DNA from: an uncultured Chromatiales bacterium
GTDB taxonomy: Bacteria; Pseudomonadota; Gammaproteobacteria; Poriferisulfidales; Oxydemutatoraceae
DNA length: 64,000 nt
NCBI GenBank assembly: GCA_964347615.1
Contig: CAYFZO010000006.1
Location: 4,126 to 68,125, forward strand
Reading direction: 5' to 3'
Part shown: positions 13,416 to 51,000 of the stretch, piece by piece
How the letters are laid out: every line of letters starts with the position of its first letter
How positions within the stretch are numbered: the first letter of the stretch is position 1
The notes under the pieces: generated by a model
Told to the model about the DNA's origin: nothing
Databases searched by the model: none
The model's input: only the letters and a program-made list of their open reading frames with translations
Position numbers and translations under genes: made by a program

Positions 13416-13423
13416 AATTACGC

Positions 13424-19767: not shown

Positions 19768-19769
19768 GA

Positions 19770-31928: not shown

Positions 31929-34900
31929 ATGAACAACGACGTCCCTCGCCCCGGAATGATTGCGACAGTTCGCAACCGGCGTGGTGTAATTGCCTCTGTT
32001 GAACCTTTTGACGGCCAAACTGGACGTATTCACCTTGTCGACATAGAGTACAAGGACAACTACGCGCCGGATACGGAACGCATCCTATGGGAACGTGAAC
32101 CTAACCGAGATCTTCTTGAACCGACCGCATTACCCGACCCAACTCAAGACCCCATGCCTCCGAAAGAGTTCGACGCGCTTTTACGCGCCGCTCGATGGAC
32201 GGCTCTTTCCCCATACCTCGACCCTGATGGTGACGGCCCCTTAGATCGAGAACCAATTTCAAGTCCATTCCACGGTGGCGTACGAGTGGAAGACTATCAG
32301 CTCGTCCCATTATTAAAAGCTCTCCGCATGCCTCGCGTGAGCTTGTTGATTGCCGACGACGTCGGGCTTGGCAAAACCGTTGAAGCAGGGCTGATTTTGA
32401 CCGAACTTCTTCTCCGACGTCGTATCCGACGCATTCTAGTCCTCACACCCGCGTCTCTGCGTCAGCAATGGCAGGATGAGCTCTGGGAGAAATTCTCACT
32501 TCGATTCAAAATTATCGATCGCAGCTCAACGGAAAAATTGCGCCGAGACCGAGGAATAGATGCAAATCCATGGCGATCATTCGACCGCATCGTTGCCTCC
32601 TACCATTATTTACGTCAACCCGACGTACGCGAACAATTTTTATCAGCATGTCATACCCCGGAAAATTCACCACACCTACCGTGGGACTTGCTGATAGTGG
32701 ACGAATGTCACAACTTGATGCCGTCATCGTTTGGAGAAGACAGCGAGCTTTGCAAAACGCTCGGTTTGGTCGCACCACGGTTTGAACACCGGCTGTTTCT
32801 TTCGGCGACTCCACACAACGGCCACACGCGTTCGTTCACCGGGCTGCTGGAAATGCTTGACCCGGTGCGCTTCACCCGCACCCACGAAATGAAACCTGCC
32901 ATGCGTGGACGAATCAACGACATAATGATTCGTCGGCTAAAACGCCAGATTAACGCTGGCAGTGCAACACCAAGATTTTGTACCCGGCATCCGCCCAAAT
33001 CTTTGGAACTCAACACAGATCCGCGCGAATCTGCCCTTTCCGAGGCTTTCGATGCCTTTCGCAGCGCTATTCGTAATCTCATCACGGAAGGAACAAAGCA
33101 GCGCCGCCGCGCTGGAATTTTTGCGGTCGAAATTCTCGGCAAACGGCTGCTCTCCTGCCCTACAACGTTTGCTGAATCTTGGAGCCGGACAAGACGGGGG
33201 TTTCGCGAACAGGATGTCTCAGATGAAACGGAATTGGCAGCCGCCGAACGGTCATTGCGTCAGGAAACCGGCGATGACAGAGAAACAGAAAAGCGCGAAG
33301 CCAATGCTGCTGCAACTATAGGTGCATGGCTTAAGAATTTTTCTGACGACGTCAAGGATGAGATCAACCGCATCGAAAAAGCGATTGATGAGCTAGGCTT
33401 TGATCTCAATGCCTCTATTGTTGAACAAACGCCTTGTGTTGACGTGCGCTTCGACACGCTTGTCTCGTTAATCGAAAATCTCCTGCGGAAGAAAAATAAG
33501 TTCCGCGATGACGAACGCTTAATCGTCTTTACAGAATACAAAACCACGCTCGATTACGTCGCTCGACGCCTGCGCGAAAAATACCCTGCCGAACGAATTT
33601 TGACGCTGTTTGGGGCCGGTGGACAGGAGGGTATGGATGAAAGCGAACGTGAAAACGTCAAAGCGGCTTTCAACAATCCGGGTTCACCTGTACGCGTTCT
33701 TATTGCGACCGACGCTGCGTCGGAGGGACTCAACCTGCACCAGACGGCACGATATTTGCTGCATTACGACTGCCCATGGAACCCGTCACGCTTGGAACAA
33801 CGCAACGGCCGCCTTGATCGTTACGGTCAAGCCCGTGACGTGACCGTGCATCACTTTGTCAGCAGTACAGATCCTGATTTGCGCTTTATTGATTGCGTTA
33901 TTCGTAAAGCAGATGAAATTCGAGAAGACCTTGGTTCCGTCAACGAAGTTTTTGACCGTGCAACTTATCGCCGCCTGATTCAAGGGGAAGATGCAGAATC
34001 AGTGAAAACAGATATGTATGCAGGGCTTGACGCCGCCCAAGAAAGCTCGGCTATTGAAGCCGACGAAACGGCCACGATAAAAAACGAAGCAGCGTCTGAT
34101 GATGCGTTGCTTGACGCAATGTCTAAAGAGATCGACTTAGATAGTTATGCACTCGGCGATACGCTTGAAGCGGCAATGATCTCATCGAGTGGTCGAAGGC
34201 CTCAACTCGAAGTCGGTGAGGAGCCGGGATGTTATCGCGTGACAAACCCGGAACTCCCCCACTGGCGTGACATTATTGATGAAACTGTACGCCGTCCATC
34301 ACTTCATGCCGCCCGCGGACCAATGCCGCAACTCGCATTTGACACTAAACAATTCATTAAGCCACTCGGATCTTTGAGTGTTTTTCTACCACGGAAAGAA
34401 GTCTTGCTTATCCACCTTGCACATCCGCTGATGCAACGTGCTCTCAGTCTCCTTACACAATGTCGCTATCCCGGTAACCGCCAAGTTTCACGATGGACGG
34501 TACGCCGAGGTGACGGAGAAATCCCAAAAGATGCTGATGCAGCCATTTTATTTAGTATTGAAGAAATTGCCGTAAATGAATTGCGCGAAACGTTTCATCG
34601 CTGGGTACGCACCGTGGTATTTCCCGTTCAGAATGGAATCCTTGGTGAACCGCTTCCACATATTCCGGCACACAGCTTTCGTGGAGCATCTGTAACGAAA
34701 AATCAAAGCGAACAAAAACAGGCAGGAGAAATCCTTGAGGAGGTTAATGGCTCACTGAGGAAATGGCTGGAACAACACCAGAAAGAACTTACCGACTCTC
34801 TCCAAAATCAACTTGAGAGTGACGGTAAAGCGGCTCGTGGACTTGAAGAGAATCGGTACAAGCAGCGGCAAGGAGAACTATCAAAACTAATCGAAGAAAC

Positions 34901-35186
34901 GACAATAGCAAAACTTACTCGAGAAATTAAGCAACTTCAAGAAAGGCTGCGGCAAAGAAAACTTTTAGATGAAGCCGAGAAAATTATGGAGATTGAACGC
35001 TCTATCAAGAAAAAAGAAGAAGAAATAGAACGTCGCCGTTCTTATTACAAAGAGATCAAAAATCAATTGAAGCGCGAACATGAACGGACTCTTAAACATC
35101 TCCTTCCTAAACGCTTTGCAATGTCAGGCAACGCTCAAGTATTCCCTGTCACAGTTGAAATTCGTTTCCCGGAACAGCAGCCTTGA
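31929..35186 (+). CDS. SNF2-family helicase (DISARM DrmD-like)
   Basis: 'DYQLVPLLKAL...LIADDVGLGKTVEAG' and 'LIVDECHNL' (DExH) are the N-terminal motifs. 'ATDAASEGLNLHQTARYLLHYDCPWNPSRLEQRNGRLDRYGQ' is the SNF2 C-terminal helicase signature. The gene is translationally coupled to the downstream methyltransferase. Confidence 0.85.
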   Translation: MNNDVPRPGMIATVRNRRGVIASVEPFDGQTGRIHLVDIEYKDNYAPDTERILWEREPNRDLLEPTALPDPTQDPMPPKEFDALLRAARWTALSPYLDPDGDGPLDREPISSPFHGGVRVEDYQLVPLLKALRMPRVSLLIADDVGLGKTVEAGLILTELLLRRRIRRILVLTPASLRQQWQDELWEKFSLRFKIIDRSSTEKLRRDRGIDANPWRSFDRIVASYHYLRQPDVREQFLSACHTPENSPHLPWDLLIVDECHNLMPSSFGEDSELCKTLGLVAPRFEHRLFLSATPHNGHTRSFTGLLEMLDPVRFTRTHEMKPAMRGRINDIMIRRLKRQINAGSATPRFCTRHPPKSLELNTDPRESALSEAFDAFRSAIRNLITEGTKQRRRAGIFAVEILGKRLLSCPTTFAESWSRTRRGFREQDVSDETELAAAERSLRQETGDDRETEKREANAAATIGAWLKNFSDDVKDEINRIEKAIDELGFDLNASIVEQTPCVDVRFDTLVSLIENLLRKKNKFRDDERLIVFTEYKTTLDYVARRLREKYPAERILTLFGAGGQEGMDESERENVKAAFNNPGSPVRVLIATDAASEGLNLHQTARYLLHYDCPWNPSRLEQRNGRLDRYGQARDVTVHHFVSSTDPDLRFIDCVIRKADEIREDLGSVNEVFDRATYRRLIQGEDAESVKTDMYAGLDAAQESSAIEADETATIKNEAASDDALLDAMSKEIDLDSYALGDTLEAAMISSSGRRPQLEVGEEPGCYRVTNPELPHWRDIIDETVRRPSLHAARGPMPQLAFDTKQFIKPLGSLSVFLPRKEVLLIHLAHPLMQRALSLLTQCRYPGNRQVSRWTVRRGDGEIPKDADAAILFSIEEIAVNELRETFHRWVRTVVFPVQNGILGEPLPHIPAHSFRGASVTKNQSEQKQAGEILEEVNGSLRKWLEQHQKELTDSLQNQLESDGKAARGLEENRYKQRQGELSKLIEETTIAKLTREIKQLQERLRQRKLLDEAEKIMEIERSIKKKEEEIERRRSYYKEIKNQLKREHERTLKHLLPKRFAMSGNAQVFPVTVEIRFPEQQP

Positions 35187-38100
35187 GTACAGAACAGACC
35201 AATGCCGATCTACCTGGATGGGATTCACTACGCCATGGTGGACTGTTGTTCGATGTTGCTCGGCTTAAAACACTTACCGAATTTATCCCCCCACGATTAA
35301 ACGAATACGTTGAACAGCAGCTACGCCACCAGGGAAGCTCTATATTGAACGAAACCGGCGACACCTCAACTTTCGTTACTTTCGTTTTAGAGCAAGTCTG
35401 CGGACTCGATGGTTCAACCGGCACTTGGTTACGCGGCAACAACGTTCCATCATCTTGGGGACGACGGGCGATTACCGGCGAGACCGTTAAACCTCGTCAT
35501 CTGTGGCAAGGACAACACGACGCGTTGCTACCAATATTCATAGACGACAAAAAACGCATCGGCATCGGCAAAGGACGTCGCACCATTAGCCAAGTGCTTG
35601 GTTGGCTTCGCGCTGGCAACAACCAACTTGCATTAATAACCAACGGTCGCCAATGGCGACTGCTGTTTGCCGGCCTCGACTATGACGCTTGGTGCGAATG
35701 GGATATGGATATGTGGTTTGAGGAGGGTGGGCTCTCGCCGCAAGTAACAGCACTGCGCACCTTGCTCAATTTTGAACTTTGGACTCCGAAATCCGAAGAC
35801 GCTCCACCACTCCTATTACAAGCGATTCGAGATACACGCAAAGGCCAAGCGGAACTCTCAGAGGAACTCGGCGAACAAGTGCGTAAAGCAGTCGAAAAGT
35901 TAATTCAAGGTCACAGCGAAGCACTTCGAGAGTACCACGATTCCGTTGCTCCTGCAGATATTTACCGTGCTGCTTGCCGCGTAGTAATGCGGCTCATAGT
36001 GATCTTGTTCGCCGAATCTCGGGACCTGCTACCTCGAGAAAATGCTCTTTACCACGGTAGCTACGGACTGAATGGACTGTTCGACCAACTCGAACACAGT
36101 GCCCACCATGGCGCGGACCTCGCGAACAGCTGGGCTGCATGGCCCCGCATACTGGCTCTGTTCAACTTAGTGCGGCAAGGATCTCATCACCCCGACTTAC
36201 CAGTAACAGCTTACGGTGGAAAGCTTTTCGCAACTGGGCGCCCAGATCCAGCGGATAGAGCATCCAAAGCAATCGATATCTTTGAACGCGAGAATCAAAG
36301 TGCATTATTTTCCGATCGAGACGTTCACAAGATGCTGAGATTGCTTACCCGCACGACCATCAGCATCCGCCAAGGACGTGGTGTGAGGAGGAGTAAGGCA
36401 CCGGTAGATTTTTCCGATCTCTCGTCTGAATACATCGGCATTCTCTACGAAGGATTATTAGACTATGAGCTTAAGACTGCTCCTGACGACGATTCGGTGG
36501 TCTTTCTGACCGTCGGCAATCGGCCAGCACTTCCACTATCGCGTTTGGAAAAAATGGAAGACGGTGCTATCAGAACCCTTTTTAAGTCTCTCAAGAAAAA
36601 GAAAGCGGTTACAGATGACGATACTTCCGAAGATAGCGAGCAAGAGAGCAAAGACGTCGAGCTGGAAAGTAAGGTTGACGAATTGTCTTTCGATGCCAAT
36701 GATGTAACGCTCTATGATAAAAATGACCAATTAGATATATCTCGGGCAGAAGCATGGGCACGTCGTGCCGTGCAAGTAGCGAAGCTAGTAAAAAAACCAC
36801 TTGTCGCGCGAGTTGTCCTACCAGGCGAATGGTATCTAGTCCGCTGGGGCGGCACTCGAAAAGGCTCTGGAAGCTTCTACACTCGACCGGGACTTGCTGT
36901 GCCAACCGTACAACGCACCCTACGCCCGCTTGCCTATGACCCACCTCCAAAAGCCAATGGAGCGCCAGATACAGCAGCGCGTGCGGAAAGTTGGATTCCG
37001 AAACTGCCGGAACAAATTCTAGACGTTAAAACATGCGACCCCGCCTGTGGATCAGGCACCTTTCCACTGGCAGCGTTACGCTTCCTCACCGATGCTTTAT
37101 ACAAATCTCTTCAACGTCATGAACGCATCAAGCGAGACGGTGAACGTTCGGTGATACGGTTACTACGCCTTCACCATGATAAAAATTCAACAACGGCTGG
37201 TGAATCTCCTTTCCACGAAGAACTTATTCCCTGCCCCCCGGACGACGGCGACTTTGAACCTCGATTAAAGGCGGTATTGCGCCGTCACGTAGTAGAGCGC
37301 TGTATCTACGCTGTAGATCTCGATCCGCTTGCCGTAGAGCTGTGTCAGCTGTCTCTGTGGATTGAAACAATGAACCGTGAACTGCCGTTCGGCTTCCTGG
37401 ATCACAAAATAAAGTGCGGCGACGCGCTACTCGGGGCATGGTTCGACCAGTTTCAACACTATCCTGTTATGGCTTGGAAAAACCGCGAGGGGGGCGATAA
37501 AAATCATTCAGAAGGCGTCCATTTTGAGAAAAACGTTCGTACGAAAAAAATCAAGGATTTTGTCAAAGATAAACTGACACCGGATCTAAAACTCTTTCTG
37601 CGAGGCCGCGATCTATTTCAGGAAGATACACTTGAAATAGCAACAACCGCTCACAAAGAATCACTTTCTGTGTTGGAGAAGATGCACAAAATGTCGGTGC
37701 AGGATACAGAGGAACGAGCGAGAATCTACCACCAGAACTTTTTGGGCAGAAAAGCATGGAGCCAAATCAAAGATGCAATGGATCTTTGGTGCGCTTGCTG
37801 GTTCTGGCCGGTAGACAAGATTGAACAGGCGCCTTTACCAAGTAACTTCGCCAAGCCACCAGGCGAGACGCTCGCTGTCGCTAAACAAACAGCGAATAAA
37901 ATGCGATTCTTCCACTGGGAACTGGAATTTCCAGACGTGTTCCAAGAGCAAGGAGCAGGCTTTAGCGCGATTTTAGGTAACCCCCCGTGGGATGCTCCAA
38001 AGCCTATCTCCAAGGAGTTTTTTTCAGATATTGACCCTCTCTACCGTACCTATGGCAAACAGGAAGCTTTGCAATATCAATCCCGCTGCTTCAAAGACGG

Positions 38101-40558
38101 TGATGCCGTTGAACGTCGCTGGCTCGATGACAATGCCGATTTCCGTGCCCGGGCAAACTTTTTCAGATACGTCCGGGGACCGTTCGGTGATCCAGAAGAA
38201 ACCACCGACGGTAAAAACAGATTTGTGGTTATCCGAGGCAAAACCAATCAGGACCTACATGAAAATTGGCGGCAAGCGCGCAACCACACTGTTAGCTTCA
38301 GCGATCCGAAACATCCATTCCGTCATCAAGGCTCGGCGGATATCAATCTCTATAAACTATTCCTCGAATCTGCCCATGCCTTGTTGGGATTTGGCGGAAG
38401 GTTGGGGTTCATCGTTCCTTCAGGGGTATATTCAGATGACGGAACACAGGCGCTTCGAAAGCTTTTTCTTGACAATTGCCGATGGGAGTGGCTGTTTGGC
38501 ATTGTAAACCGTGAAAACATTTTCCCCATTCATAAAAACTACAAATTCAACCCCGTAATCATTGAAAAAGGCGGAAACACGGAAGCAATCCAAACTGCTT
38601 TCATGCAACGCAATCTCGAAAACTGGGAAAATGCCGAGAGCATCTCTATTTCTTACCCTCAAACGTGGATAAAGCAGTTCAGCCCTAAAAATCGAACTTT
38701 CGTGGAAATTCAATCACAACGTAATTTGGAAATTTTGGAAAAGATATACAACCACAGCATTCTACTAGGTGATAACAGTTCCTCTGGATGGGGCGTTCGT
38801 TACTTTCGTGAATTCGATCAGACAAACGACTCAGAACTCTTCCCACCTCGCCCAGAGTGGGAGAATAAAGGGTATAGACCCGACGAGTACAACCGCTGGT
38901 TGCGAGGCGACTGGCAGCCGATTGAAAACCTCTTGGAGTCTTTAGATATTAATCCAGCCCAGGCCGAACCAGCAGAATTAGAACTTGAAGAGTGGTTGCT
39001 TCACGAGACAAGTTCAGAACGTCAAAAAACCGAAGTCCGACTCGTACGCGGCTATTTGCTCAGACCCGGCGACGTCGCCAGGACCGTTTGGAGTCTACGC
39101 TGCGCGCAGCCACCCTACGACAAACTGCCAATTCCGCGTTCGAAAGTACCTGCTGGAATAATTCTCTCACGAGAGGGTGATACCTATATCCACGTGGATA
39201 AAATCGAAGATATAGCCCTCCCACTTTACGTGGGAAAGATGATTTACGTCGGTGATTGGAACGCATCCACGATTCAGTTAAACGAGTTGAAACAACACAG
39301 CCCCAATCCTGAATACCTTTTAGGTATAAAAGACCTCCGACATAACCGCCAAACAAACAACCGCATCGTTTTCCGTGATGTATCACATGCAACCAATGAA
39401 CGTAGCTTCGTAGCGACTCTCATCCCTGGATTATTTCCCTGCGGGAACAAATTGCCGATACTAAGCTTGCCACCCTACAACCCTGTTCAAAGTCTTGAAT
39501 TAATCAATGCTTTGGTAAGTTTCGGATTCGACTGGGTTGTTCGACAGCGTTTCGCTGGAAATAGCCTCAATTGGCACATTGTCGAACCTTGCCCAGTGCC
39601 GCGCCCGGGTACTAGCACCAACAGAACGATAACGCAGTTGGCAAGGTTATTACTCGGAAACATTCTCTTTTCAAGCGACTGGCTGCAACTTTCGAATCTG
39701 GTTTCGCAGCCTCATTTTTACCCGTGTACTTTCAAAGAAAGGCTTCGTATTACTATTATGCTTGACGCAGTAATGACCGCCACCATGGGGCTTTCGGGGT
39801 CGGATTTTCGACGTATCCTGGCAGGGTGTGATTACCCGGCTGGGAACATCATTGACAAGCAACTAAAAGGTTTCTGGCGCGTGGACAAAGACAAAGCCCC
39901 TGAGCTCCGCCAAACTGTCCTGTCTCTAGTTGCTTTCCAAGACCTCGAAGAGCGAATTAAAGCAGCCAATAACAACGTGGAAAAGGGGATTGATTCTTTT
40001 CTTGCACAAAATCACGGCGAAGGGTGGATGCTGCCGGAAACGTTACGCCTTGCCGACTACGGCCTCGGCCATGACAATCGCGCGAAACAACCACAACCCG
40101 TCGCCAGCCGTCTCCCCGGCCCGCGCTTCTACGATTGGCAACTCGCTCAAAGCCCCAAAGAAGCTTGGCAAGAATGTCATCTCCACGCCCGAAATTTACT
40201 CGGCGCCGATGGTTACGCCCAACACGTTCTGAAACTGATTGAACAACGCGTCTCTAACGATGAAGAGTTTCTTGACCTTCTAACGCTACCGTTTGTGCGT
40301 GATTTCATGAACGAGGATGGTTACACGACGACTATAATCAAACTTCGGGCAAAAAAAATCCTAGACGAGACCGCCTACACCCAACTTCTCGATCATCTTC
40401 GAGCACGTAACCTCTTGGACGAAGTCCGTTATCGTCGCCAACGTGAACGTATTACTTCCACGCCGGAACAGGAGCCTCTGCCGAGAGTAGCCGAGCTCCC
40501 GGCAGACTACGATACCGAAACGCCCTCAAAAGAGAATCAAACAAAGATGTTCGAATAG
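35183..40558 (+). CDS. Giant (1,791-aa) gamma-class N6-adenine DNA methyltransferase (DrmMI/PglX-like) with large N- and C-terminal extensions of unknown function
   Basis: Motif I is 'DPACGSGTFPLAALRFL' at about residue 617. 'IYAVDLDPLAVELCQLSLWIE' follows. Motif IV, 'ILGNPPWD' (NPPW), is at about residue 931. The TTG start overlaps the SNF2 stop. Confidence 0.8.
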   Translation: MSTEQTNADLPGWDSLRHGGLLFDVARLKTLTEFIPPRLNEYVEQQLRHQGSSILNETGDTSTFVTFVLEQVCGLDGSTGTWLRGNNVPSSWGRRAITGETVKPRHLWQGQHDALLPIFIDDKKRIGIGKGRRTISQVLGWLRAGNNQLALITNGRQWRLLFAGLDYDAWCEWDMDMWFEEGGLSPQVTALRTLLNFELWTPKSEDAPPLLLQAIRDTRKGQAELSEELGEQVRKAVEKLIQGHSEALREYHDSVAPADIYRAACRVVMRLIVILFAESRDLLPRENALYHGSYGLNGLFDQLEHSAHHGADLANSWAAWPRILALFNLVRQGSHHPDLPVTAYGGKLFATGRPDPADRASKAIDIFERENQSALFSDRDVHKMLRLLTRTTISIRQGRGVRRSKAPVDFSDLSSEYIGILYEGLLDYELKTAPDDDSVVFLTVGNRPALPLSRLEKMEDGAIRTLFKSLKKKKAVTDDDTSEDSEQESKDVELESKVDELSFDANDVTLYDKNDQLDISRAEAWARRAVQVAKLVKKPLVARVVLPGEWYLVRWGGTRKGSGSFYTRPGLAVPTVQRTLRPLAYDPPPKANGAPDTAARAESWIPKLPEQILDVKTCDPACGSGTFPLAALRFLTDALYKSLQRHERIKRDGERSVIRLLRLHHDKNSTTAGESPFHEELIPCPPDDGDFEPRLKAVLRRHVVERCIYAVDLDPLAVELCQLSLWIETMNRELPFGFLDHKIKCGDALLGAWFDQFQHYPVMAWKNREGGDKNHSEGVHFEKNVRTKKIKDFVKDKLTPDLKLFLRGRDLFQEDTLEIATTAHKESLSVLEKMHKMSVQDTEERARIYHQNFLGRKAWSQIKDAMDLWCACWFWPVDKIEQAPLPSNFAKPPGETLAVAKQTANKMRFFHWELEFPDVFQEQGAGFSAILGNPPWDAPKPISKEFFSDIDPLYRTYGKQEALQYQSRCFKDGDAVERRWLDDNADFRARANFFRYVRGPFGDPEETTDGKNRFVVIRGKTNQDLHENWRQARNHTVSFSDPKHPFRHQGSADINLYKLFLESAHALLGFGGRLGFIVPSGVYSDDGTQALRKLFLDNCRWEWLFGIVNRENIFPIHKNYKFNPVIIEKGGNTEAIQTAFMQRNLENWENAESISISYPQTWIKQFSPKNRTFVEIQSQRNLEILEKIYNHSILLGDNSSSGWGVRYFREFDQTNDSELFPPRPEWENKGYRPDEYNRWLRGDWQPIENLLESLDINPAQAEPAELELEEWLLHETSSERQKTEVRLVRGYLLRPGDVARTVWSLRCAQPPYDKLPIPRSKVPAGIILSREGDTYIHVDKIEDIALPLYVGKMIYVGDWNASTIQLNELKQHSPNPEYLLGIKDLRHNRQTNNRIVFRDVSHATNERSFVATLIPGLFPCGNKLPILSLPPYNPVQSLELINALVSFGFDWVVRQRFAGNSLNWHIVEPCPVPRPGTSTNRTITQLARLLLGNILFSSDWLQLSNLVSQPHFYPCTFKERLRITIMLDAVMTATMGLSGSDFRRILAGCDYPAGNIIDKQLKGFWRVDKDKAPELRQTVLSLVAFQDLEERIKAANNNVEKGIDSFLAQNHGEGWMLPETLRLADYGLGHDNRAKQPQPVASRLPGPRFYDWQLAQSPKEAWQECHLHARNLLGADGYAQHVLKLIEQRVSNDEEFLDLLTLPFVRDFMNEDGYTTTIIKLRAKKILDETAYTQLLDHLRARNLLDEVRYRRQRERITSTPEQEPLPRVAELPADYDTETPSKENQTKMFE

Positions 40559-40596: not shown

Positions 40597-41112
40597 CTAA
40601 CCACCAATCTCTCTGGTGAATCGATTAATTATATCTTCGTTGATGTGCGTAGGGCTAGATTCATGCATTTGGTTAGCAACCGCCAAAGCAGTATGCTGCG
40701 TAAGAACACCAGCAGTAACCAAATCCACCATTAGGGTAAGCCCGAAACGAGTTTTGACGCGATGTTTTTCGCAAAGTCGCTGAAGTGCTCTATCGTTTGT
40801 GACGCACGTCCATCCTCTTTCTTTACAGGTAACGAGGCAAAGGCGGTCATTAAATGAAACGTTTGACTCGACTTCTCCAGCTGCAAGCATTTGTTCTGTC
40901 TCAACTTCGACGACCTCGATACCATAACGACGACACTGAGACACTGATACTCCTCGGACCTCGTCGAGCACGTGCGTCAAAACGGCTATTTGCCCTACGG
41001 ACTGAGTTACGAGTTTTAGAACCTCTAGCTTGGAATCACGGTAGTCTATAAGAACGTCCGCATCCGCAAGAAGCCCAGTTTGTAAGGCCCCGCGTTCAAT
41101 TTGTCCACTCAC
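40597..41112 (-). CDS. PIN-like nuclease-fold protein (DUF4411-like), partner of the HTH-ImmA regulator
   Basis: The N-terminus 'LLADADVLIDY' is a PIN-like first-Asp strand. Further acidic residues follow ('THVLDEVRG', 'VTNDRAL'). Its start overlaps the upstream HTH-ImmA stop. The ImmA-plus-DUF4411 pairing is a recurring defence-island dyad (from memory). Confidence 0.45.
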   Translation of the reverse strand: MSGQIERGALQTGLLADADVLIDYRDSKLEVLKLVTQSVGQIAVLTHVLDEVRGVSVSQCRRYGIEVVEVETEQMLAAGEVESNVSFNDRLCLVTCKERGWTCVTNDRALQRLCEKHRVKTRFGLTLMVDLVTAGVLTQHTALAVANQMHESSPTHINEDIINRFTREIGG

Positions 41113-42229
41113 GCGCCTGTTTCCTCATCTCCTCTCGAGTAATCCTCAATATTTCGGCAGCGCGCCCAAGCGAAATATGCTGCTTCTCGACCGCCCTCCG
41201 CACGAGACGCGATAGGCGATTCTCAACGAAATCGTTATAGGAAAGACCTTCTGGTTCTTCAGATCGGCGCCAGCTCCAAGCAAATTCTCCCGCTTCCAGA
41301 GCGAAAGGCTCGTCGACCTTGCGGAGGGTTTTGCCAAAGCGAGCACGATGCTGCCGTTGAAACGTACGCCAAATTTCAGATTCTGCGCGCTCCGATTCCA
41401 CCAAGCGGTAAAGAACTGTCTTATAACTTACTCGGAAAATTCTCTTGACTTTAAGGACACGAATCAAAAGCGGATGTCCATAAGTTTCATTCCATTCACT
41501 GTTAAATGCTTCCTCCGGCATTAGAAACTCACTTGCGAACGCATCTGCTTCACGTTCTGTATCTGCAGAAAGATCGGTCTCATCACGTTGATACTCCCCA
41601 GGGTGAAGCAATAGATGTCCCAACTCATGTGCTGCGGTAAATATCCAACGCTCCACCGATATTCGGTCCCACCTATTGACAACAATCGCTGGCCCGCCAT
41701 CTTGTTCCCCAGCGCTCAACCCAAAGAAAGAATCCCGCTTTTTGTCCAGAAGCAAGAGTTTTACTCCATTTTTCTCAAGTAATCCACAGATGTCCCGCAC
41801 CGGTTCCTTAGGCCCTAACTCAGCAATCTCACGTACTTTTTGGGCAGCACTTTCAGGTCCTGCACTACGAAAAATCTCAGGGTTAAATTTGAATGGACAC
41901 TGCTCGCCCAGGCTGACTTCCAGACTCTTATAGTCATCCAGCCATTTTGAAACTTCCGCCAAAATTTGCTCTCTCCCATGCACTTGGGTCTTGGCGCGAA
42001 ACCGTACACTCTTGAGAGGACGTACGGGAGTCACGAGAACACCGACCGGAACCGCCAGCGCCTTTGCCAACGCAGTAAGTGTTCCCTCCCGCGGGATGAC
42101 TACACCCCGCTCAATCTTGCCAAGCGCCACCCGTGAAAGCCCCGCCTTATCGGCAAGCTGTTCCTGAGTCAGCTCCCGATCCAAGCGTAACCGCGCTACG
42201 TTTGCGGCAATCCCCGCTCTGTCTTCCAT
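41096..42229 (-). CDS. XRE-family HTH fused to an ImmA/IrrE-family Zn-metallopeptidase
   Basis: The HTH is 'LTQEQLADKAGLSRVALGKIERG'. The HExxH motif is 'FTAAHELGHLLLH'. It is divergently oriented from the Ubl operon. Confidence 0.8.
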   Translation of the reverse strand: MEDRAGIAANVARLRLDRELTQEQLADKAGLSRVALGKIERGVVIPREGTLTALAKALAVPVGVLVTPVRPLKSVRFRAKTQVHGREQILAEVSKWLDDYKSLEVSLGEQCPFKFNPEIFRSAGPESAAQKVREIAELGPKEPVRDICGLLEKNGVKLLLLDKKRDSFFGLSAGEQDGGPAIVVNRWDRISVERWIFTAAHELGHLLLHPGEYQRDETDLSADTEREADAFASEFLMPEEAFNSEWNETYGHPLLIRVLKVKRIFRVSYKTVLYRLVESERAESEIWRTFQRQHRARFGKTLRKVDEPFALEAGEFAWSWRRSEEPEGLSYNDFVENRLSRLVRRAVEKQHISLGRAAEILRITREEMRKQAREWTN

Positions 42230-42252
42230 CTTCGAACTTCGAAAAGCGCCCC

Positions 42253-42281
42253 TTGACAGGCGTTCACCAGTAAGGTATCAT
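42253..42281 (+). promoter_or_regulatory. Candidate sigma-70 promoter for the Ubl/E2/JAB/E1/helicase operon, with TTCGAA repeats immediately upstream
   Basis: The sequence is TTGACA, 17 nt, TATCAT (42,253-42,258 and 42,276-42,281). It lies in the divergent intergenic region between the HTH-ImmA gene and the Ubl gene. 'CTTCGAACTTCGAA' at 42,229-42,246 is a possible operator. Confidence 0.4.
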
Positions 42282-42406
42282 ATCTCCCGAAGTTGTCAAT
42301 ATGAATACTTTCAGATTGGCAGCTATAGGGCCGAACGCTTGGCTGATTGCCGTTTTGCTGTCAGCAGGCTTCGGGATTATACAACAAGCACGGGAGGGAC
42401 CAGATA

Positions 42407-42658
42407 ATGGTTGATCCAGACAAAGTAATCCTCGAAATTGCGGCACCGAAAGGGCTGTTCAAAGGGGAGTTCGAAAAAACTGTTACCGTTCAACAGGTAA
42501 TCGACGCAGTTATAGAAAAACAACAATTGCAGCGCGGCGATGTTTTTGAGCTGTTTTATAAAGGTAAGCAGCTTGAACCAGTAAAACAAACGCTGGCTGA
42601 GTTTAATCTTGCAGGAGTAGTTCAGCTCGAGCTCGTTGCTACCGGTCAAGGAGTATAG
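42407..42658 (+). CDS. Small ubiquitin-like (beta-grasp) protein
   Basis: 83 aa with a GGGAGGGA ribosome-binding site. It is the first gene of an operon that also encodes E2-like, JAB/MPN and E1-like proteins. The C-terminus reads '...LELVATGQGV'. Confidence 0.5.
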   Translation: MVDPDKVILEIAAPKGLFKGEFEKTVTVQQVIDAVIEKQQLQRGDVFELFYKGKQLEPVKQTLAEFNLAGVVQLELVATGQGV

Positions 42659-42664
42659 CGATCC

Positions 42665-43123
42665 ATGGCAACGGTATCTGAGTTGATTCTCGGTGAAGAG
42701 TTCGGTCATTTGCGCGAGATAGCCGAAGCTCGTAACTGGCCTCTCAGTCAAGTCAACAAGCGTACATTTAAGCTCACGCTTACAGCACGTGATGATGCCC
42801 GCTTCAGCTTATTGGTTAGCTGCAGCGATTACCCGCAAAAACCACCGGCTTGGCACTGGTGTAATCCTGAAACGGATGCTCTGGACCAAAAAAGCGATAC
42901 GCCGAAAGGGACTGGAGGATATTTTGACCAGTCGGGTTGCATTTGTGCGCCTTGGAACAGGCTCGCCTATCAGCAAGAGAACCCTGAAGGCCCTCACCCA
43001 GATTGGAATCTTGTGAACTGGAGGACAAATGATTGGACAAAAGGATGCACCACGCTGTCCGCAATGGCGTCACGTATCGCGGTCGAACTCATGAGCGATC
43101 GTTACCGAGGCCGGGAAATCTGA
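42665..43123 (+). CDS. E2-like (UBC-fold) candidate conjugating protein
   Basis: 152-aa protein lying between the Ubl and JAB genes. 'QSGCICAPWN' is a candidate catalytic Cys loop. The assignment is mainly by operon context. Confidence 0.35.
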   Translation: MATVSELILGEEFGHLREIAEARNWPLSQVNKRTFKLTLTARDDARFSLLVSCSDYPQKPPAWHWCNPETDALDQKSDTPKGTGGYFDQSGCICAPWNRLAYQQENPEGPHPDWNLVNWRTNDWTKGCTTLSAMASRIAVELMSDRYRGREI

Positions 43124-43128
43124 GATAA

Positions 43129-43650
43129 ATGCTTGAACGAATAAAAAAGTTGTTTTTTCGTAAACGAGTTTTCAAACCTGGTCCGCCAGAACCACCTAGA
43201 TTGATTTTAGCTCAATCCAGTGTGACTGCTCTACGGTCTTGCATGAAACCGGAAATTCGAAAAAAACACGAAAGTATCGCTTACCTTCTGGGTCAGACTA
43301 ACTCTACGACAACTTTGGTTGTGAGTGTAATCCGACCTCAGGCCCAAACCACACCGGGGAGCTTCAAGGTCGAGTCCGTAGCAATGATACGAATTATGCG
43401 TGCAGCTGTCCGTCTTGGACTTCAGGTAGTTGGACAAATACATACCCATCCTAGGAAAGCATTTCACAGCGAAGGAGACGAGGAAGGAGCACGTATTGCC
43501 TATAGCGGCTACGCTTCGATCGTGTTGCCTGATTATGGGCGACGCCTCCCCTCGTTCAAAGGAGCAGTTGCCTACATGTTCCAGACTAACAGCGGCTTTA
43601 TACCAATCGCTCCAGATTGCTTCGTGATCGTGCCGGGAAAAACATCGTGA
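43129..43650 (+). CDS. JAB/MPN+ (JAMM) metalloprotease / deubiquitinase-like
   Basis: The JAMM motif is 'GQIHTHPRKAFHSEGDEEG' (H-x-H-x7-S-x2-D). An upstream Glu lies in 'FKVESVAMIR'. Confidence 0.7.
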   Translation: MLERIKKLFFRKRVFKPGPPEPPRLILAQSSVTALRSCMKPEIRKKHESIAYLLGQTNSTTTLVVSVIRPQAQTTPGSFKVESVAMIRIMRAAVRLGLQVVGQIHTHPRKAFHSEGDEEGARIAYSGYASIVLPDYGRRLPSFKGAVAYMFQTNSGFIPIAPDCFVIVPGKTS

Positions 43651-44996
43651 ACGGGGAAGACTGGAGAAGGGAACGTGACAGTCGTTCCTTGCTCTATGCG
43701 GGGCGAGTACTCGACCGTAATCGGTGGGTGTCGCTGTGTCCTGATCCACGTTACGTGTCGCGTTACGATGGGCAAGTGGCGCTTCTGACCGCGGCGAATC
43801 TCCTTGGTCGAATGACCCCCAGTATTGCGTTGGATATTCCTGATTCAATCCCCATCGTTGATTCTCTACCTAATGCCGGGAAGAACTTGCGTGACGTGTT
43901 GCTTGACCAGCTTCATGAAGCAGATCCTTCTGGGAGTTTCTGTCGCCGCTCATATAAACCGGATGACTACATCATCAGATTCGGTAAGACCGGCGGCGTC
44001 AATACAGTGCACGGGTCGGGCTGGAAAATGTACTGCGGCCCAAGCCCATCACCTTTGGCAGAAACCGAAACGGTAAATCCAATTGGCCCAGCAATGGCTT
44101 CTATTCTTGCTGTAAGTGAAGCTTTCCGAACAAATCTTACTTCACCTCCCGGACAATACACTTTCGATGCTCTAACTTGGACTTCTGACGTAAAAGATGA
44201 AAGTGATGCTCCACTTCCTACTCAGTCGAAGCTCGGAGAAGTTTGGGTTGTTGGTACTGGCTCAGTTGGAACAGCGGTACTCTATTTTTTGAGCCTTGCT
44301 ACACGGAATTTTTCCGCGGTTCTTTTCGACATGGATATAGTCGAAATTCACAATCTGGATCGATCTCCTATATTCACGAGTAACGATGCGGATAATAAAA
44401 CAAACAAAGCAATAGCGACAAAAAGATATCTAAACCAAGTAGGAGTTTCTAACGTCAAAGCCGAACCACACGCCCTTGATGAATCCGATATCTGGAAAAA
44501 CCGTCAGCCAGGTACCCCCGACGTTTTAGTCCCGACCGCAAACGAGCGTAATGTGCGTTCCCTTATCGAAAGTTACTTTCCGCCAATCCAAGTTTACGGA
44601 ACCACGGGGCAGAACGGACAAGCCACAATGATTCGTCATATTCCCCCGCATGATCCATGTTCGCTTTGCCTATTTCCTGACACTGACCACGCACCAACGA
44701 GTTGCGCGATCGGTAAAGTTGAGAATGAAAGTAATGAAAAGAAAATTGATGCGGCGCTCCCTTTTCTATCCTTTGCTGCAGGAGCAATGGCCGTCGCCGA
44801 AATTCTAAAACTCAGCCTGCCTGATTATCCAGCCAATAGAAGTAACCGAACAATCTTGTACACAGGCTGTCCACCCCGTTTCACATCTGGACAATTATCT
44901 TTCAGAGATGGTTGCCCATGCCGGCAACGTAACTACGACCTTTATCGAAAAATAACCGAGAACACCTGCTTTTCCCACTTGATGCGTTTCTCATGA
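43617..44996 (+). CDS. E1-like ThiF/MoeB-family activating enzyme
   Basis: The Rossmann nucleotide-binding motif is 'VWVVGTGSVGTAVLYFL', with 'FDMDIVEIHNLDRS' after it. A C-terminal Cys pair lies in 'PHDPCSLCLFPDTDH...SCAIG'. Its start overlaps the JAB gene. Confidence 0.7.
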   Translation: MLRDRAGKNIVNGEDWRRERDSRSLLYAGRVLDRNRWVSLCPDPRYVSRYDGQVALLTAANLLGRMTPSIALDIPDSIPIVDSLPNAGKNLRDVLLDQLHEADPSGSFCRRSYKPDDYIIRFGKTGGVNTVHGSGWKMYCGPSPSPLAETETVNPIGPAMASILAVSEAFRTNLTSPPGQYTFDALTWTSDVKDESDAPLPTQSKLGEVWVVGTGSVGTAVLYFLSLATRNFSAVLFDMDIVEIHNLDRSPIFTSNDADNKTNKAIATKRYLNQVGVSNVKAEPHALDESDIWKNRQPGTPDVLVPTANERNVRSLIESYFPPIQVYGTTGQNGQATMIRHIPPHDPCSLCLFPDTDHAPTSCAIGKVENESNEKKIDAALPFLSFAAGAMAVAEILKLSLPDYPANRSNRTILYTGCPPRFTSGQLSFRDGCPCRQRNYDLYRKITENTCFSHLMRFS

Positions 44997-45027
44997 TTTC
45001 GTAGTTTAGGCACTCAATCGGCCAACA

Positions 45028-48000
45028 ATGTATTATCGGCTGGTTTGGAACTTTCAAAGTGCTGTATTTCCAATGGCTTTAAACCCCATCGCTTACACGG
45101 AAAGCGTCGTCCGTAGTTTTCTGCGTTACCAACTTACGGCGTACCCTTTCGCTGACCAAAGATTGCACGAACAGATGTGCAAATTGCTGTCTCTTAACGA
45201 AACTCGTCAGTCTCCCCTCCTCAAAGGCCCCTACGTCAGCTTATCGCGCTCATTCCGGCAAGGCGCTTCAGTCGCGTCTTTAGTGAAAGAAAGGCTGCTA
45301 CACCCTCACTTACAACAACGTATTCGCAACGAAGTTACACATCTCTATAGTCATCAAGAAAAAGCGATCCGTGCTATTGCGAAGAAGCAGACAACCCTCG
45401 TATCCACCGGAACCGGTTCAGGCAAAACCGAATGCTTCCTCTATCCCATCATTAGCCAATGCCTGAAACTCAGGGATGAAAAAGCATCCCCCGGTATTAG
45501 CGCGGTCATTGTCTATCCGATGAACGCATTGGCGGAAGATCAGCTCATGCGATTACGCGGCCTGTTGGCAGGCACTGGAATTCCATTTGGGATTTATGTA
45601 GGCAAGACACCTGAGAATGAAGCCGATGTGACTGGCGTTAAATTGCATGATGGGGCGTCACGGGATGATTACGAAACCCGGCTGAAACGAGCACAACAAG
45701 AAAGCAGCGGCGAGACGGTTTATCCAGCAGAAGAGGTTTGTTCACGGGAGGTTATGCGCACAGAAGGCAAACAGCCACGAATTCTCTTAACCAACGTGAA
45801 GCAGCTTGAGCTGCTGCTGACGCGGCAGATAGATATTCAACTGTTCGCTAATGCTCGACTGGATTTTCTGGTATTCGATGAGGCTCATACGTTCACTGGG
45901 GCGCTAGGAGCGGAAACAGCCTGCCTAATCCGGCGCCTGCGTGCATTCTGTGACATCAATATAAACCACACTACATGCGTCGCTACCTCAGCAACGATCG
46001 TTGATAAGGAAGAGCCTGACGCCGCCCGAAAATTCGCCGCACGATTTTTCGGCGTTCCACGCGAAGCAGTAACTACAGTTAATGAAGACTACGAAAAAGA
46101 CGTTTGGGAAGAGCCACGGTTTGTTCCCACTGCTCCCCCTGAAAAAGCTGCCGATATTCTCAGCAACTGTATTGAGGCAGTTGAAGACGAAGACAATTCA
46201 AACGCTGAAAAAATAGAGGCAATCTATCGTGCGTTAACCGGCGAGGGCCTGCCCGAAAGAAACTGGCCGGAAGCCCTGCACAATGCTATGTCTCGCAATG
46301 ATCTGGTTTTTCGCTTGAACGAGGAGCTCCATACCCCGAGGGAGCTGGCGGAATTACCAGCAGCACTTGAACGGCATATCGACCGCCCTGTAGCTGAGGA
46401 AGAAATTCTTGCTTGGCTGACGTTAGGGGCGGCAGCACGCAAGCAAGGTCGACCTTTATTACGCCCCATCGTACATAACTTCGTACGCGGCATCAGCGGC
46501 GCCGTGGTGACATTTCCTAAAGATATGAATAGCCCGAAGCTATGGCTCGCTGCAAAAGACGAGGGTGAGATTGAACCTGACACGTCTGAAGATAAACATG
46601 CGCATTTTCCTGTAACGACCTGTACTACTTGTGGACAGCACTACTTCATTGCGTTCCTAAAAGACTTCTCTTTCACCGGAAACGTGCCTGAGGGCGGTGA
46701 AACCAGCTCCACCGGCCCTTGGTGGTCTTCGAAAGAAGAAACTTTGGGTGGTAAACGCGTTGTTCTAGTAGACAAATTGATTGGAGAAAGTGACGAAGAC
46801 GAGGACACGTCTCCTCATGCGAAGATGGCACCACTCTATTTCTGTCGCCGATGCGGAACAGCACACCTTGAAACACAGTCACGATGCCTTTGCTGTGGAT
46901 ATGAAAATGGTACGGTTCAGCTGCACGCAGTCCGCCAGAAGGAAAAAAATCCTGGCAAACTGGCCAGCTGCCTTTCTTGTGGTTCTACCAGTCGTCGACT
47001 CGGCGGGGATTACCGCGAACCAGCCCGGCCCGTGCGTGCAGTTAACGTGGCGGACGTGCACGTTCTCACCCAAGACATGGTGCACCACGCAGAACGACGT
47101 CGTCTGCTCGTATTCTGCGATAACCGGCAGGACGCGGCATTTCAAGCTGGCTGGATGAAAGACCGCGCCCGACGTTTCAGGTTACGAGCGTTAATGATGG
47201 AAAACATCAAAAAAAGCGCGTGCTCCGTAGGCGATTTGGCCGGGCATCTCGATAAGTTAATGGAAAAAGATGAAACCCTTTCACGAGCGTTGCTTCCTGA
47301 GGTATGGCGCGTTGCACGTCGAGAAGACAGCGGTACCCGCCACCAACAGGAACGCTACAAGTTTCTTCGCTTCCAAGTATTGCGCGAAGTTACACTGCCG
47401 TCACGACAAGCGGTTGGTCTCGAGCCATGGGGCCGCATGAAAATCGAATACACGGGGCTCGACGCGGTGCTACCATGGATTCAGAAGCATGCTCATTCCC
47501 TAAGCCTCCCCCCAGATGGCTTGCGGGAAGGCGTCGCAAGCGTACTCGACTACTTGAGACGAAGAGGGGTGCTGTATGACCCTGAGAATGAGATATTTAC
47601 GAAATACTGGGGAAAAGGAGACCTTGAGATCCAGCGTGGGTACTTACCCGACTCTATTCGACCCAACTCCACCAAGCTACAGCGCCAAGCAGATGAAAAA
47701 CGGGAAGTAATTATTCAATGGATAAGCGACAGGGGCAGCCCAACGGTACCCCAAATCGTCAAGAAATGGGGGGCAGAGAAAAACGCAATCAAACCACTTT
47801 TGGAAAGCTTGTTTCAATTCTTAAAGGAAAACAAACTACTAGTGCCTGTACGACTTAAAGGTTACAAAGGCCGCGCGCTCCCAAAGGTACACGGCGTCTA
47901 CCAAGTAAATAGCGACAAATTACTGTTGACTCCGAACAAAGGCATGAGACGTTGTCGTAGCTGTCGCCGCACTACCACTCGGAACTTACCTTACGACCAC

Positions 48001-51000
48001 TGCCCTGCCCGGAATTGCAACGGAACTTTGGAATGGGTGCCGGAAGATCCAGACAACTATGATTTGCATCTGCTCGATAGCGCATACGAAATGCTGCGTC
48101 CGGAAGAACACACTGCTATGGTCCCATCTGAGGACCGCGAACGTTTTGAGAACTTGTTTAAGGGTGAATCAGAGGCAGTAAATTGTCTGGTGTGTACCCC
48201 AACGTTGGAACTAGGAATTGATATCGGGCGACTCGACTCAGTCCTGATGCGCAACGTACCCCCGTTGCCGGCAAATTATTGGCAGCGCGCCGGACGCGCC
48301 GGACGGCGACATCGCATGGCGGTGAATGTCACCTATTGCCGACCAGTCTCACACGACCGTGCCTACTTCTCAGAGCCGCCTAAATTGCTGGCAGGCAGGA
48401 TTGACCCTCCGGCATTTAATCTAAGAAACGAAGTGATGGTCGAAAAACACGTTCACGCAATAATCATCGCCTCTTTGTATCGCTATTGTCATGATAACGC
48501 TAGACCAGAAGCGGAACGTAACACGATACAGGAAACTTTGCTCAATTGTTTTCCCTCGTTTATCTCGCCTTATCTATTCGATGACAATGAAGAAGTACGG
48601 ACAACGCTGTTCGGCTTCACTTCCTTACGCGATTTAGTTCAGGAAAACTATCAAGCATTGGTCACCGACGTGCAACGTGTGTTTGAGCAAGGATGGCCAG
48701 AGACGGATGCCGACGTTGTAACCCAAGAAGCTCTTTCTGCCTACGTCGCCAAATTCGCCGATAACTTGGAAAACGTCGTCAAACGTTTGCAGCGCCGTCT
48801 GCGTTGGGCTATGAACCAGATTCAGCGCCTCAATAATCACCGTCAGAGCCAGGGAACGCTTTCCCGTGAGGATGAAACGCTATTCCGCCGTTGCGACAAT
48901 CTGGTAAAACGACTAAAAGGCACGAGCTGGAGACGACGAAGCCGAGCGGAAGGGCACTACGACTCGAACACGTTCAGCGTGCTCTCAGCGGAGGGATTCC
49001 TGCCGGGTTACGGCCTGGAAGTCGGCTCGATAAGAGGTGAAGCGGAAATTCCACCCTGGCTCCCCGGAGCTAAGAGTTTTTCTTTACCTCGACCGCCTGC
49101 AATCGCTCTACGTGAATACGTTCCTGGCAATCTCATCTATGCCAACGGACAACGTTTTGTCGCGCGTCACTTTCGCCGCGAGGCAGGCGAGGAATATTCA
49201 GAGATGCCGTGCTACGAAGTATCAATTGACCACCAAGCCGTTAAGCCCGTTAGTTTAAATGCACCCTCGTCATTAGGCGGATACGTCCTCCAAACAATAT
49301 CCGTCTGTGATACGGACTTAATTCATACTTCACACATATCCGACGAAGAAGAATTTCGGTTTCAATTAGGCTTAGCTATTTACGGATTGGAAATCAAGCA
49401 GCACAACGGCGGAATCTCATATCGTTGGGGAGAAAAAACCATGCAACATCGCCGTGGAGTACATATACAACTTGTCAACGTAGGGGCTTTGCTCGCCATC
49501 CGCAAAGGAGAAATTGGTTATCCTGTCTGCACGGTATGCGGCCAAAGTATCTCCCCTATTTCCTCTGACAGACAGCACCAAGAGTTTGTTAAAGATCACA
49601 AGGAACGTTGTGGACGTGAGCCAAAATCTATCGGTTTCTATACCAACGTAGTTGCCGACGCGCTTTCGCTGCCTGAGTGTGACAACTTGGAAATCGCGTA
49701 CAGCGTCTTAGAGTCTTTGCGCTTCGCCGCTACTAGAGTACTTGACATGCATACGGAAGACTTGCAGGTGCTTGTTATAGGACACGTTGAACGAGACGGC
49801 GTAGATGCTTTGTTATGGGATCCAATGCCTGGTGGATCCGGGCTGCTTGACCGCGTGTGTGAACGCTTTGATGAAATCGTGCAAGCAGCTAAAGAAATCG
49901 TTAGTGATTGTCCCGCAGTATGTGACTCATCCTGCATAGATTGCCTTCAGACGTTCCGCAACGCTTATTACCATGAGCACCTCAATCGCCATACAGCCCA
50001 AACACGATTGGAAGAATGGGGAGAACAGCTGGTACGCCGTCACGATATTCCACCGTTGCAACAAAACATTGCCTCCAGCAAAAATGCAATGCCGGTTAAC
50101 GAGGCAGAAACCAAGCTGCGGCACCTGCTACTCGCCGCTGGATTTGACGAAGGCATCCGAGACGAACAGATTCAGTTAGATCGAGCAATAGGAACTACAA
50201 CACCTGACGTAATCTACCGAACGGAAACCGATGGAACAGACGAAGGTGTATGTATTTATTTGGACGGATTGAGTGCACATATCCATGGCAACCCAAAAAC
50301 CGCTGAGAAAGACAGGGAAATCCGGGATTGGTTACGCAATAGAGGATATGAGGTCATTGAAATCACCGCTAACCAGTTAGACGATGAAGATGCAATGACA
50401 CGTCACTTTCGCCGCCTCGCAAGATATTTGCAGATGCCAGATACATTAAGCCGGCTGCGTGATGATCACTCGTGGTTTCGCCAATCTAAAAAGGCATCAG
50501 TTTCTCCTTTGCGATTGGTTACACCGACACCTGAAACGCGTTATGTCACCTGCGTGCCTCTAGTCCCCTTGCAGATTGCCGCAGGGACGTTTGGCGATCC
50601 CAATGCCGCTCCCGACGAATCCGAATGGCAGTGGGTAAAACTTAACTCAGTACGCACGCTGCGCCCTGGAATGTTTGTTGCTGCCGTAACTGGAAAATCT
50701 ATGGAGCCAAAAATACCCGATGGCTCATACTGCCTTTTTTCCGGCCCTGTCACTGGGACGCGGCAAGAAAAAATCGTGCTTGCTCAAATGCACGACACGA
50801 TTGACCCTGAAACCGGGGCCAGGTTTACTGTAAAACGCTATCGGAGCACGAAAGGGGAAAACGACGATGGCTGGCGACACATCAAAATCACCCTTGAACC
50901 TATTAACCCTGACTATCAACCGATTGAGTTAGCGACGGATAACGAGAACTCCGTCACAGTAGCCGCGGAACTGGTTAGCGTTCTTGGCCAAGACGCTCCT

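Follow-up and report, generated by a model that had tools for sequence, protein, structure and literature searches.

A minus-strand HTH-M78 peptidase and PIN nuclease gene pair as a probable sensor toxin-antitoxin module and candidate regulator of a divergent Ubl-helicase operon

Described relatives of the gene pair

The proteolytic inactivation of helix-turn-helix (HTH) proteins by M78 zinc peptidases has been described in both transcriptional regulators and toxin-antitoxin (TA) systems. In ImmR/ImmA (ICEBs1) and DdrO/IrrE (Deinococcus), an M78 metalloprotease cuts an HTH repressor on DNA damage, and its targets are derepressed. CapH (HTH) and CapP (M78) repress CBASS operons, with derepression also following DNA damage (Lau et al., 2022), and CapP cuts CapH after the HTH, at F82/R83 (F82|R83; bioRxiv 10.64898/2026.05.16.725639). 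CapH/CapP-like regulators have been reported upstream of diverse defence operons and on the opposite strand in every case; such genes accompany ubiquitin-like 6a and 6e operons, and a vapC-like gene together with a CapH-CapP fusion lies upstream of DISARM (Lau et al., 2022). Among TA systems, RosmerTA is a phage-defence system in which a Zn-peptidase antitoxin is combined with variable toxins (Millman et al., 2022, preprint), and the ImmA/Rosmer antitoxin node of NetFlax often has an HTH at its N-terminus and PIN-like proteins as toxin partners (Ernits et al., 2023; PMC10440598). VapBC52 of M. tuberculosis (Rv2514c/Rv2515c) combines a PIN toxin with an antitoxin of HTH-FR-IrrE-peptidase architecture; the toxicity of VapC52 is neutralised by VapB52, which self-cleaves when given single-stranded DNA (ssDNA), with F75-R76 as the proposed site, presumably freeing VapC52 (NAR 2026, PMC13273310). 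Here, we describe a gene pair related to all of these in a 64,000-nt stretch of DNA from an uncultured Chromatiales bacterium (contig CAYFZO010000006.1), to which we will refer as "the window". The pair, on the minus strand, consists of a gene for a fused repressor/antitoxin of 377 aa (41096-42229, XRE-type HTH plus Peptidase_M78) and a gene for a putative toxin, a VapC-like PIN nuclease of 171 aa (40597-41112), and it faces away from a plus-strand operon for a ubiquitin-like protein (Ubl), E2, JAB and E1 proteins (Bil-like) and a DruE-like helicase with an S24 domain, as assigned with Pfam and PADLOC.

The architecture and likely mechanism of such a pair are already described in the literature; its cargo context is new. 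The pair is very probably a sensor TA module of the RosmerTA/VapBC52 type, and the case for its also controlling the Ubl-helicase operon is slightly better than even. To the combination of both roles, i.e., a fused CapH-CapP-like repressor that is at the same time the antitoxin of a VapC-like toxin and controls the Ubl operon, we assign a probability of about 0.5. The domains and motifs, the PIN fold, the linkage of the two genes, the overlap of the promoters and the recurrent head-to-head placement beside defence operons were established with computational tools. Inference from the homologues supplies the rest, from binding at the conserved core through activation by ssDNA and the F77|R78 cut to derepression and the freeing of the toxin. 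The pair is primarily a known type of self-contained sensor/toxin-antitoxin unit, and a regulatory link to the operon is plausible, being reasonable and having published precedent.

Among the described systems, VapBC52 shares with the window a PIN gene beside an antitoxin with an N-terminal HTH, an FR motif at the junction (~75-78) and an IrrE/CapP-like HExxH zinc peptidase, a likeness drawn from its published description; the window protein, in contrast, has no cysteine-switch residue, and VapBC52 is not described as heading a defence operon. The cysteine switch is present in VapB52 and in about a third of CapP proteins. CapH/CapP (Lau et al., 2022; Calloji et al., 2026, preprint) are alike in the XRE HTH, the M78 peptidase, the F-R following the HTH and the divergent placement, although the correspondence of CapH F82|R83 with F77-R78 of the window is a match at sequence level only. 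They differ in that the window has both activities in one chain with a PIN gene always attached, no demonstrated GAF domain and no cysteine switch, and in that its cargo is a Bil-like Ubl system with a DruE-like helicase. ImmR/ImmA and DdrO/IrrE, unlike the window pair, comprise two separate proteins with no toxin partner, and their targets belong to a mobile element or to repair.

The two proteins and their shared promoter region

The XRE-type HTH of the 377-aa protein occupies residues ~7-68. Both of its domains score over the Pfam gathering score (HTH_3, E 5.5e-13; Peptidase_M78, E 2.6e-17), in agreement with the HTH-ImmA call of the first-pass annotation of this DNA. The protein matches 14 RmrA models of PADLOC, with a best E of 3.4e-38 over residues 15-292, RmrA being the antitoxin of RosmerTA; the capP (1.5e-18) and capH (8.6e-7) models match too, and the NCBIfam spr1629 repressor/antitoxin family does so at 2e-21, under its cut-off. 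The likeness with RosmerTA extends from the HTH and Zn-peptidase antitoxin to the two-gene layout in defence islands; the window differs in its gene order, antitoxin first, and in a toxin that fits no PADLOC RmrT model. The family of the 377-aa protein is tight (2,966 matches, the best of them ~70-75% identical over the full length), and across 35 aligned homologues H201, E202, H205 and the tetrapeptide V75-R76-F77-R78 are invariant. The zinc-binding/catalytic HExxH (H201-H205) is encoded at 41615-41629, and F77-R78 at 41996-42001, both on the minus strand; the latter is the predicted cleavage site between HTH and peptidase, where the protein would be cut by analogy with its described relatives. 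C148, upstream of HExxH, is the sole invariant Cys of the family. The C-terminal helical region is conserved, with no Pfam GAF match anywhere in the protein and low confidence of the AlphaFold2 (AF2) model in that region. Fold matches of this low-confidence model in the Protein Data Bank (PDB) begin with IrrE (3dte/3dti, probability 0.99) and continue with XRE repressors including DdrO, only the IrrE and HTH matches being usable; a PDB sequence search returned 7t5u, a chain of an HTH-domain protein, with an E of 0.003.

The open reading frame (ORF) of the 171-aa protein has a GTG at 41112 as its sole in-frame start ahead of a conserved LLADADV motif, and this start overlaps the upstream TGA (41098-41096) by 17 nt, implying translational coupling of the HTH-M78 and PIN genes; both ORFs and their overlap had been reported in the first-pass annotation and are present in the sequence. 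Its label for the protein, PIN/DUF4411-like, holds in its first half: Pfam gave PIN (PF01850) at E 1.4e-7, with 32.6 bits for a cut-off of 23.6, and no match to DUF4411, so that a DUF4411 identity was rejected. Besides this score, the PIN fold is backed by a confident AF2 model (predicted local distance difference test, pLDDT, 90.4) and by Foldseek, whose top PDB matches are VapC3, Shigella VapC and VapC21 (probability 1.0, TM 0.45-0.64); a PDB search with the sequence of the protein found nothing. The acidic quartet D17/D19, E51, D89 and D107 is invariant in 40 aligned homologues, and 505 PIN homologues at ~65% identity were found in many phyla. Sequence and model thus point to a VapC-like PIN nuclease that would act as the toxin of the pair.

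The divergence of the pair from the plus-strand operon, whose first gene starts at 42408, was also recognised correctly in the first-pass annotation, and the promoter that it had placed at 42,253 is real: the promoter scan gave a near-consensus sigma-70 promoter toward the Ubl operon at 42253-42281 (+), TTGACA-17-TATCAT, matching 11/12 positions, with a predicted transcription start at ~42288. It is interdigitated with the promoter of the pair itself (42272-42299, minus strand), which has its -35 TTGACA at 42299-42294 and an extended -10, TG-n-TACCTT, at 42280-42272; the ATGATA element in the latter promoter is the complement of the -10 of the former. The two core promoters occupy the same 47 bp (42253-42299) on opposite strands, so occupancy of one by RNA polymerase or a repressor necessarily affects the other.

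Upstream regions from many phyla, 59 of them non-redundant, were aligned at the HTH-M78 start codon, and their core consensus reads aAaa..aTCAtaTTGACAAAat..g.aaaaATGATA.ctT. The core TTGACA-N12-ATGATA.ctT was found with ≤3 mismatches in 44 of these regions, the spacing being exactly 12 nt in 35, and TTGACA-N12-ATGA-TAnnTT reads as the -35 and extended -10 of the pair's promoter. Just upstream of the -35, the window has TATTCAT (42301-42307, minus strand), for which the family consensus is TATCAT, located 0-1 nt upstream of TTGACA in 19/44 anchored loci; TATCAT is the inverted complement of ATGATA, with which it forms an inverted repeat, and TATTCAT is a candidate operator half-site. A further conserved element, TGTCAA, is located 16-18 nt past ATGATA in 17 of the 44 anchored loci, the window included, and 4-6 nt past it in nine. 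In the 16-18 class the opposite strand reads TTGACA-N16-18-TATCAT, which is close to a consensus sigma-70 promoter and directed outward from the pair. This outward geometry belongs to the module itself and is no proof of cargo control. It is the core that is conserved, and not the operator suggested in the first-pass annotation, namely two TTCGAA copies (42231-42243) beside the HTH-M78 start codon; these repeats were rejected as operator, being absent at the equivalent position in ~70 related upstream regions, and other loci of the family have a Shine-Dalgarno sequence where the window has the repeats.

From these elements, a mechanism can be proposed in which a single cleavage would act on both promoters and on the toxin. 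In the resting state, the 377-aa protein, probably as an oligomer, would bind the TATCAT-TTGACA-N12-ATGATA...TGTCAA core (42253-42307), repressing alike the promoter of the pair and that of the Bil-like/DruE-like operon, and would keep the PIN toxin inactive. By homology to CapP and VapB52, ssDNA arising from phage replication or DNA damage would activate the peptidase, which would then cut at F77|R78 and detach the HTH from the remainder of the chain. The Ubl-helicase operon should thereby be derepressed and the PIN RNase set free.

Related loci and alternative explanations

A scan with the PIN alignment, keeping one genome per species, gave 80 loci from Latescibacterota, Gemmatimonadota, Binatia, Vicinamibacterales, Spirochaetia, Myxococcota, Gammaproteobacteria, Nitrospirales, Rhodothermales and Planctomycetota. 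Their genes were called with an ORF caller weighted by GC at third codon positions (GC3), and the classification of neighbours is somewhat noisy. The HTH-M78 gene stands immediately upstream of PIN in ~72-80 of 86 loci, and the family of the pair is conserved at ~65-75% identity across many phyla. In ~31 of ~69 non-redundant loci, the window's own included, the immediate divergent neighbour is recognised by a defence model, known or candidate; such neighbours are typically ~60-250 nt from the pair, head-to-head on the HTH side. Besides the operon of the window, the divergent neighbours of the same pair comprise no fewer than 11 further kinds of defence operon. By number of non-redundant loci, they include a 6A-MBL-like cassette, composed of an MBL-like protein and an E2-E1-JAB fusion (11), PDC-S01 with AAA_14/DUF4143 (6), CBASS cyclases/effectors (5) and Azaca ZacA (2), together with a Cap2-like E1-E2, PARIS AriAB, PDC-S02, PDC-S10, HEC-01A and a methyltransferase (one each). 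In Latescibacterota/Gemmatimonadota the PIN side always shows the same housekeeping genes (DUF4159, TPP enzyme), and at this same chromosomal site the defence cargo varies by genome, always on the HTH side.

The exact Ubl cargo is much rarer. The Ubl, E2, JAB and E1 proteins of the window are found, within the related-locus set, only in its own contig (L001) and in L087 (ENA ERZ25070786 ctg149546l), a 97% identical copy of the 31000-52000 island from another metagenome, so that their co-occurrence with the pair cannot be assessed statistically. The differences between the window and L087 cluster in two places: the shared promoter core, where 12 substitutions fall in ~50 nt and affect the -35 as well as the -10 elements, and PIN, the most diverged gene, with 87% aa identity and a synonymous divergence (dS) of 0.12 vs 0.015 for the HTH-M78 gene, D130A at an otherwise invariant position of the PIN protein included.

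A broader arrangement recurs in ~10 loci from several phyla, where a DISARM/Druantia-like synteny runs from DrmD-DrmMI through the pair and a variable cassette to a DruE-like helicase of ~2,000 aa with MZB and S24 domains (L011, L013, L018, L019, L024, L032, L046, L053, L065 and L069; 31929-51024 in the window). The cassette is Bil-like (Ubl-E2-JAB-E1) in the window only and elsewhere mostly 6A-MBL-like (MBL-like protein, E2-E1-JAB fusion and a 253-aa protein), others being CBASS type I or an AAA_14 ATPase. Ubiquitin-like conjugation cassettes are thus repeatedly paired with a DruE-like helicase in these loci. In L023, L047, L052 and L065, the pair is followed at ~45-170 nt by a large co-directional defence gene, for an MkoA-like protein, HmaB or the DruE-like helicase, and it may head operons on its own strand as well.

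The main alternative, which we consider less likely, is that the pair is solely an autonomous TA or abortive-infection module, which would autoregulate and free the PIN protein on a phage cue, with the Ubl operon unaffected and adjacency reflecting clustering in a defence island. Apart from the RmrA match and the precedents of VapBC52 and RosmerTA, it draws on at least 12 related loci with no divergent ORF within 400 nt, some of them among plain housekeeping genes, which indicate that the pair can stand alone; in such stand-alone loci the promoter core is as common as elsewhere. Defence genes, moreover, occur on both sides of the pair, and co-location alone is therefore no proof of regulation. 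This explanation has to contend with the only strong promoter of the Ubl operon, which overlaps that of the pair, such that a bound repressor could hardly spare it; with the consistently head-to-head and short-distance placement of the defence cargo on the HTH side; and with CapH/CapP, which are arranged in this way as well and regulate the genes next to them.

An improbable alternative is a pure transcriptional regulator, i.e., a CapH-CapP fusion to which the PIN protein would be an accessory, such as a co-sensor or an RNase directed at transcripts of the operon. The matches to the capH and capP models agree with it, as does the absence of any toxin role for the vapC-like gene in Lau et al. 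(2022), and the predicted 5' untranslated region (5' UTR) of the Ubl operon, unusually structured (z = -4.8), could be an RNase substrate. Against this stand the intact and invariant catalytic quartet and VapC fold of the PIN protein, the translationally coupled two-gene layout typical of type II TA systems, the toxicity of VapC52 and its neutralisation by VapB52, and the persistence of the pair in loci that have no cargo at all. The proposal of the first-pass annotation, which had taken the pair as the probable regulator of the operon, hence stands in part: divergent placement, the facing promoter and literature precedent favour such a role, and the RmrA match, the VapBC52 precedent and the stand-alone loci argue against a view of the pair as a regulator only. 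The pair is thus an autonomous module set within defence islands and more than the accessory of a single system. Lastly, it is very improbable that the pair, in place of being a portable module, forms a fixed part of a DISARM/Druantia-like system and is required for its activity, e.g., by gating the DruE-like helicase, since the recurrence of DrmD-DrmMI, PIN-HTH-M78, cassette and DruE-like helicase in ~10 loci from several phyla is outweighed by ~60 of 80 loci that lack DrmD, DrmMI and DruE and lie beside unrelated systems or alone.

Several observations weigh against the dual role that we prefer. Concerning the peptidase, no Cys lies between HExxH (H205) and the downstream acidic ligand region of the 377-aa sequence, and a CapP/VapB52-type cysteine switch is therefore absent; the AF2 model of the full-length protein is poor (pLDDT 58), owing to an alignment too shallow in diversity; and beyond the HTH the PDB sequence search matched no solved VapB52 or CapP chain. 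For the PIN protein, PADLOC gave no match to a model of any kind, RmrT included. Regarding the promoter, the candidate operator is suggested by conservation and symmetry only, and ATGATA can be explained simply as part of an extended -10. The outward-promoter geometry is shared by loci with no divergent gene and is hence not diagnostic of cargo regulation: the arrangement with TGTCAA at 16-18 nt from ATGATA, tried as a marker of cargo, failed, being present in 6/28 defence loci vs 9/21 co-directional loci. As for the neighbours, defence genes are not confined to the HTH side, with MkoA-like (co-directional), pAgo-associated, HmaB and type IIG/DrmMI genes on the PIN side, so clustering in defence islands explains part of the association.

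The divergent operon, its island and the significance of the pair

The putative regulated operon spans 42408-51024 on the plus strand, from Ubl to helicase. Preceded by a GGGAGGGA Shine-Dalgarno sequence, the Ubl gene (42408-42658; 83 aa) is followed by genes for a BilB-like E2 (42665-43123), a BilC-like JAB (43129-43650) and a BilD-like E1 (43617-44996; BilD_N in precomputed Pfam), all three assigned with Pfam and PADLOC, and by that for the DruE-like helicase of 1,998 aa (45028-51024), with DEAD, Helicase_C, MZB/DUF1998 and Peptidase_S24 domains. At its C-terminus the Ubl reads ...ATGQGV and has no terminal Gly-Gly; for a C-terminal glycine to be exposed, the JAB peptidase encoded next door would need to trim the protein. 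The C-terminus of the helicase (50500-51024) contains a LexA-like cleavage-site region (VPLVPLQIAAGTFGDP / PLVPLQIAAGTFGDP), a Ser motif GKSMEP and a Lys motif TVKRY, and all three features are kept in full-length homologues from L011, L024 and L065. It is plausible that RecA/ssDNA-type autocleavage of the S24 domain would detach the C-terminal domain, as the second protease checkpoint that the first-pass annotation had suggested. The predicted 5' UTR of the operon (42286-42425, +) folds at -51.5 kcal/mol, the z score given above being relative to shuffled controls, with two long hairpins predicted ahead of the Shine-Dalgarno sequence; an Rfam search of this region gave no match. Downstream of the helicase, a 398-aa ORF on the minus strand (51296-52492), with no Pfam or PADLOC match, encodes a tandem acidic repeat, VVTDVEEEE-L/P-DAE; the ORF is conserved in L087.

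On the PIN side, PADLOC identifies DrmD (31929-35186) and a DrmMI/type IIG methyltransferase (35183-40558), both convergent with the pair. GC content is 47-52% over 29-52 kb of the window and 60-67% in the flanks, which indicates a horizontally acquired defence island. Directly upstream of DrmD, genes for an AAA_21/AAA_15 ATPase (429 aa) and a DUF4276 protein (225 aa) at 29141-31097 (+) probably form a separate two-gene defence system. A second stretch of low GC (~45%) holds a CRISPR-Cas effector set on the minus strand (11223-18136; Cas_GSU0054, Cas_GSU0053 and a Cas3-like helicase) resembling type I-U/I-G, which adjoins a degraded second module of the same architecture as the pair (19318-20927, minus strand), comprising an M78 protein of 385 aa and a truncated DUF4411 ORF. 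The gene of this M78 protein, at 19,770-20,927, had been described in the first-pass annotation as a paralogous HTH-ImmA without PIN partner. Its M78 domain is evident (E 1.2e-16), no HTH is found by Pfam, and identity with the 377-aa protein is only 30% over 144 aa; the divergent N-terminal region has an FR motif of its own (PDFRT, F76-R77). The lack of a partner does not hold either: 3 nt downstream, the ORF at 19318-19767 starts with a DUF4411 N-terminus (residues 2-25, E 9e-4) and past residue 25 runs into outer-membrane beta-barrel sequence, a fusion which indicates that the toxin gene of the second module was truncated by rearrangement.

Returning to the intact pair, a wider interpretation, which we hold only tentatively, is that one ssDNA-activated cleavage at F77|R78 gives two outputs at once, an unleashed PIN toxin and derepression of any defence operon located at the outward promoter built into the module, with the pair as a portable sensor head placed before at least 12 different defence systems. 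As one joint reading of the same tentative standing, it might unify CapH/CapP-type regulators with RosmerTA/VapBC52-type TA systems, and it might also take in the recurrent DISARM/Druantia-like chassis, where the slot beside the head would accept interchangeable cassettes, mostly ubiquitin-like conjugation systems.

As matters stand, a pair of this kind is to be expected in a defence island. The dual role, if true, would join the damage-sensing control of immune operons with TA-based abortive infection, usually treated apart, and would explain how a costly Ubl-conjugation/helicase system is kept off as long as there is no ssDNA. Its compactness and very high conservation (~70% identity across phyla) make the module a tractable model and a useful annotation flag for new adjacent defence operons.

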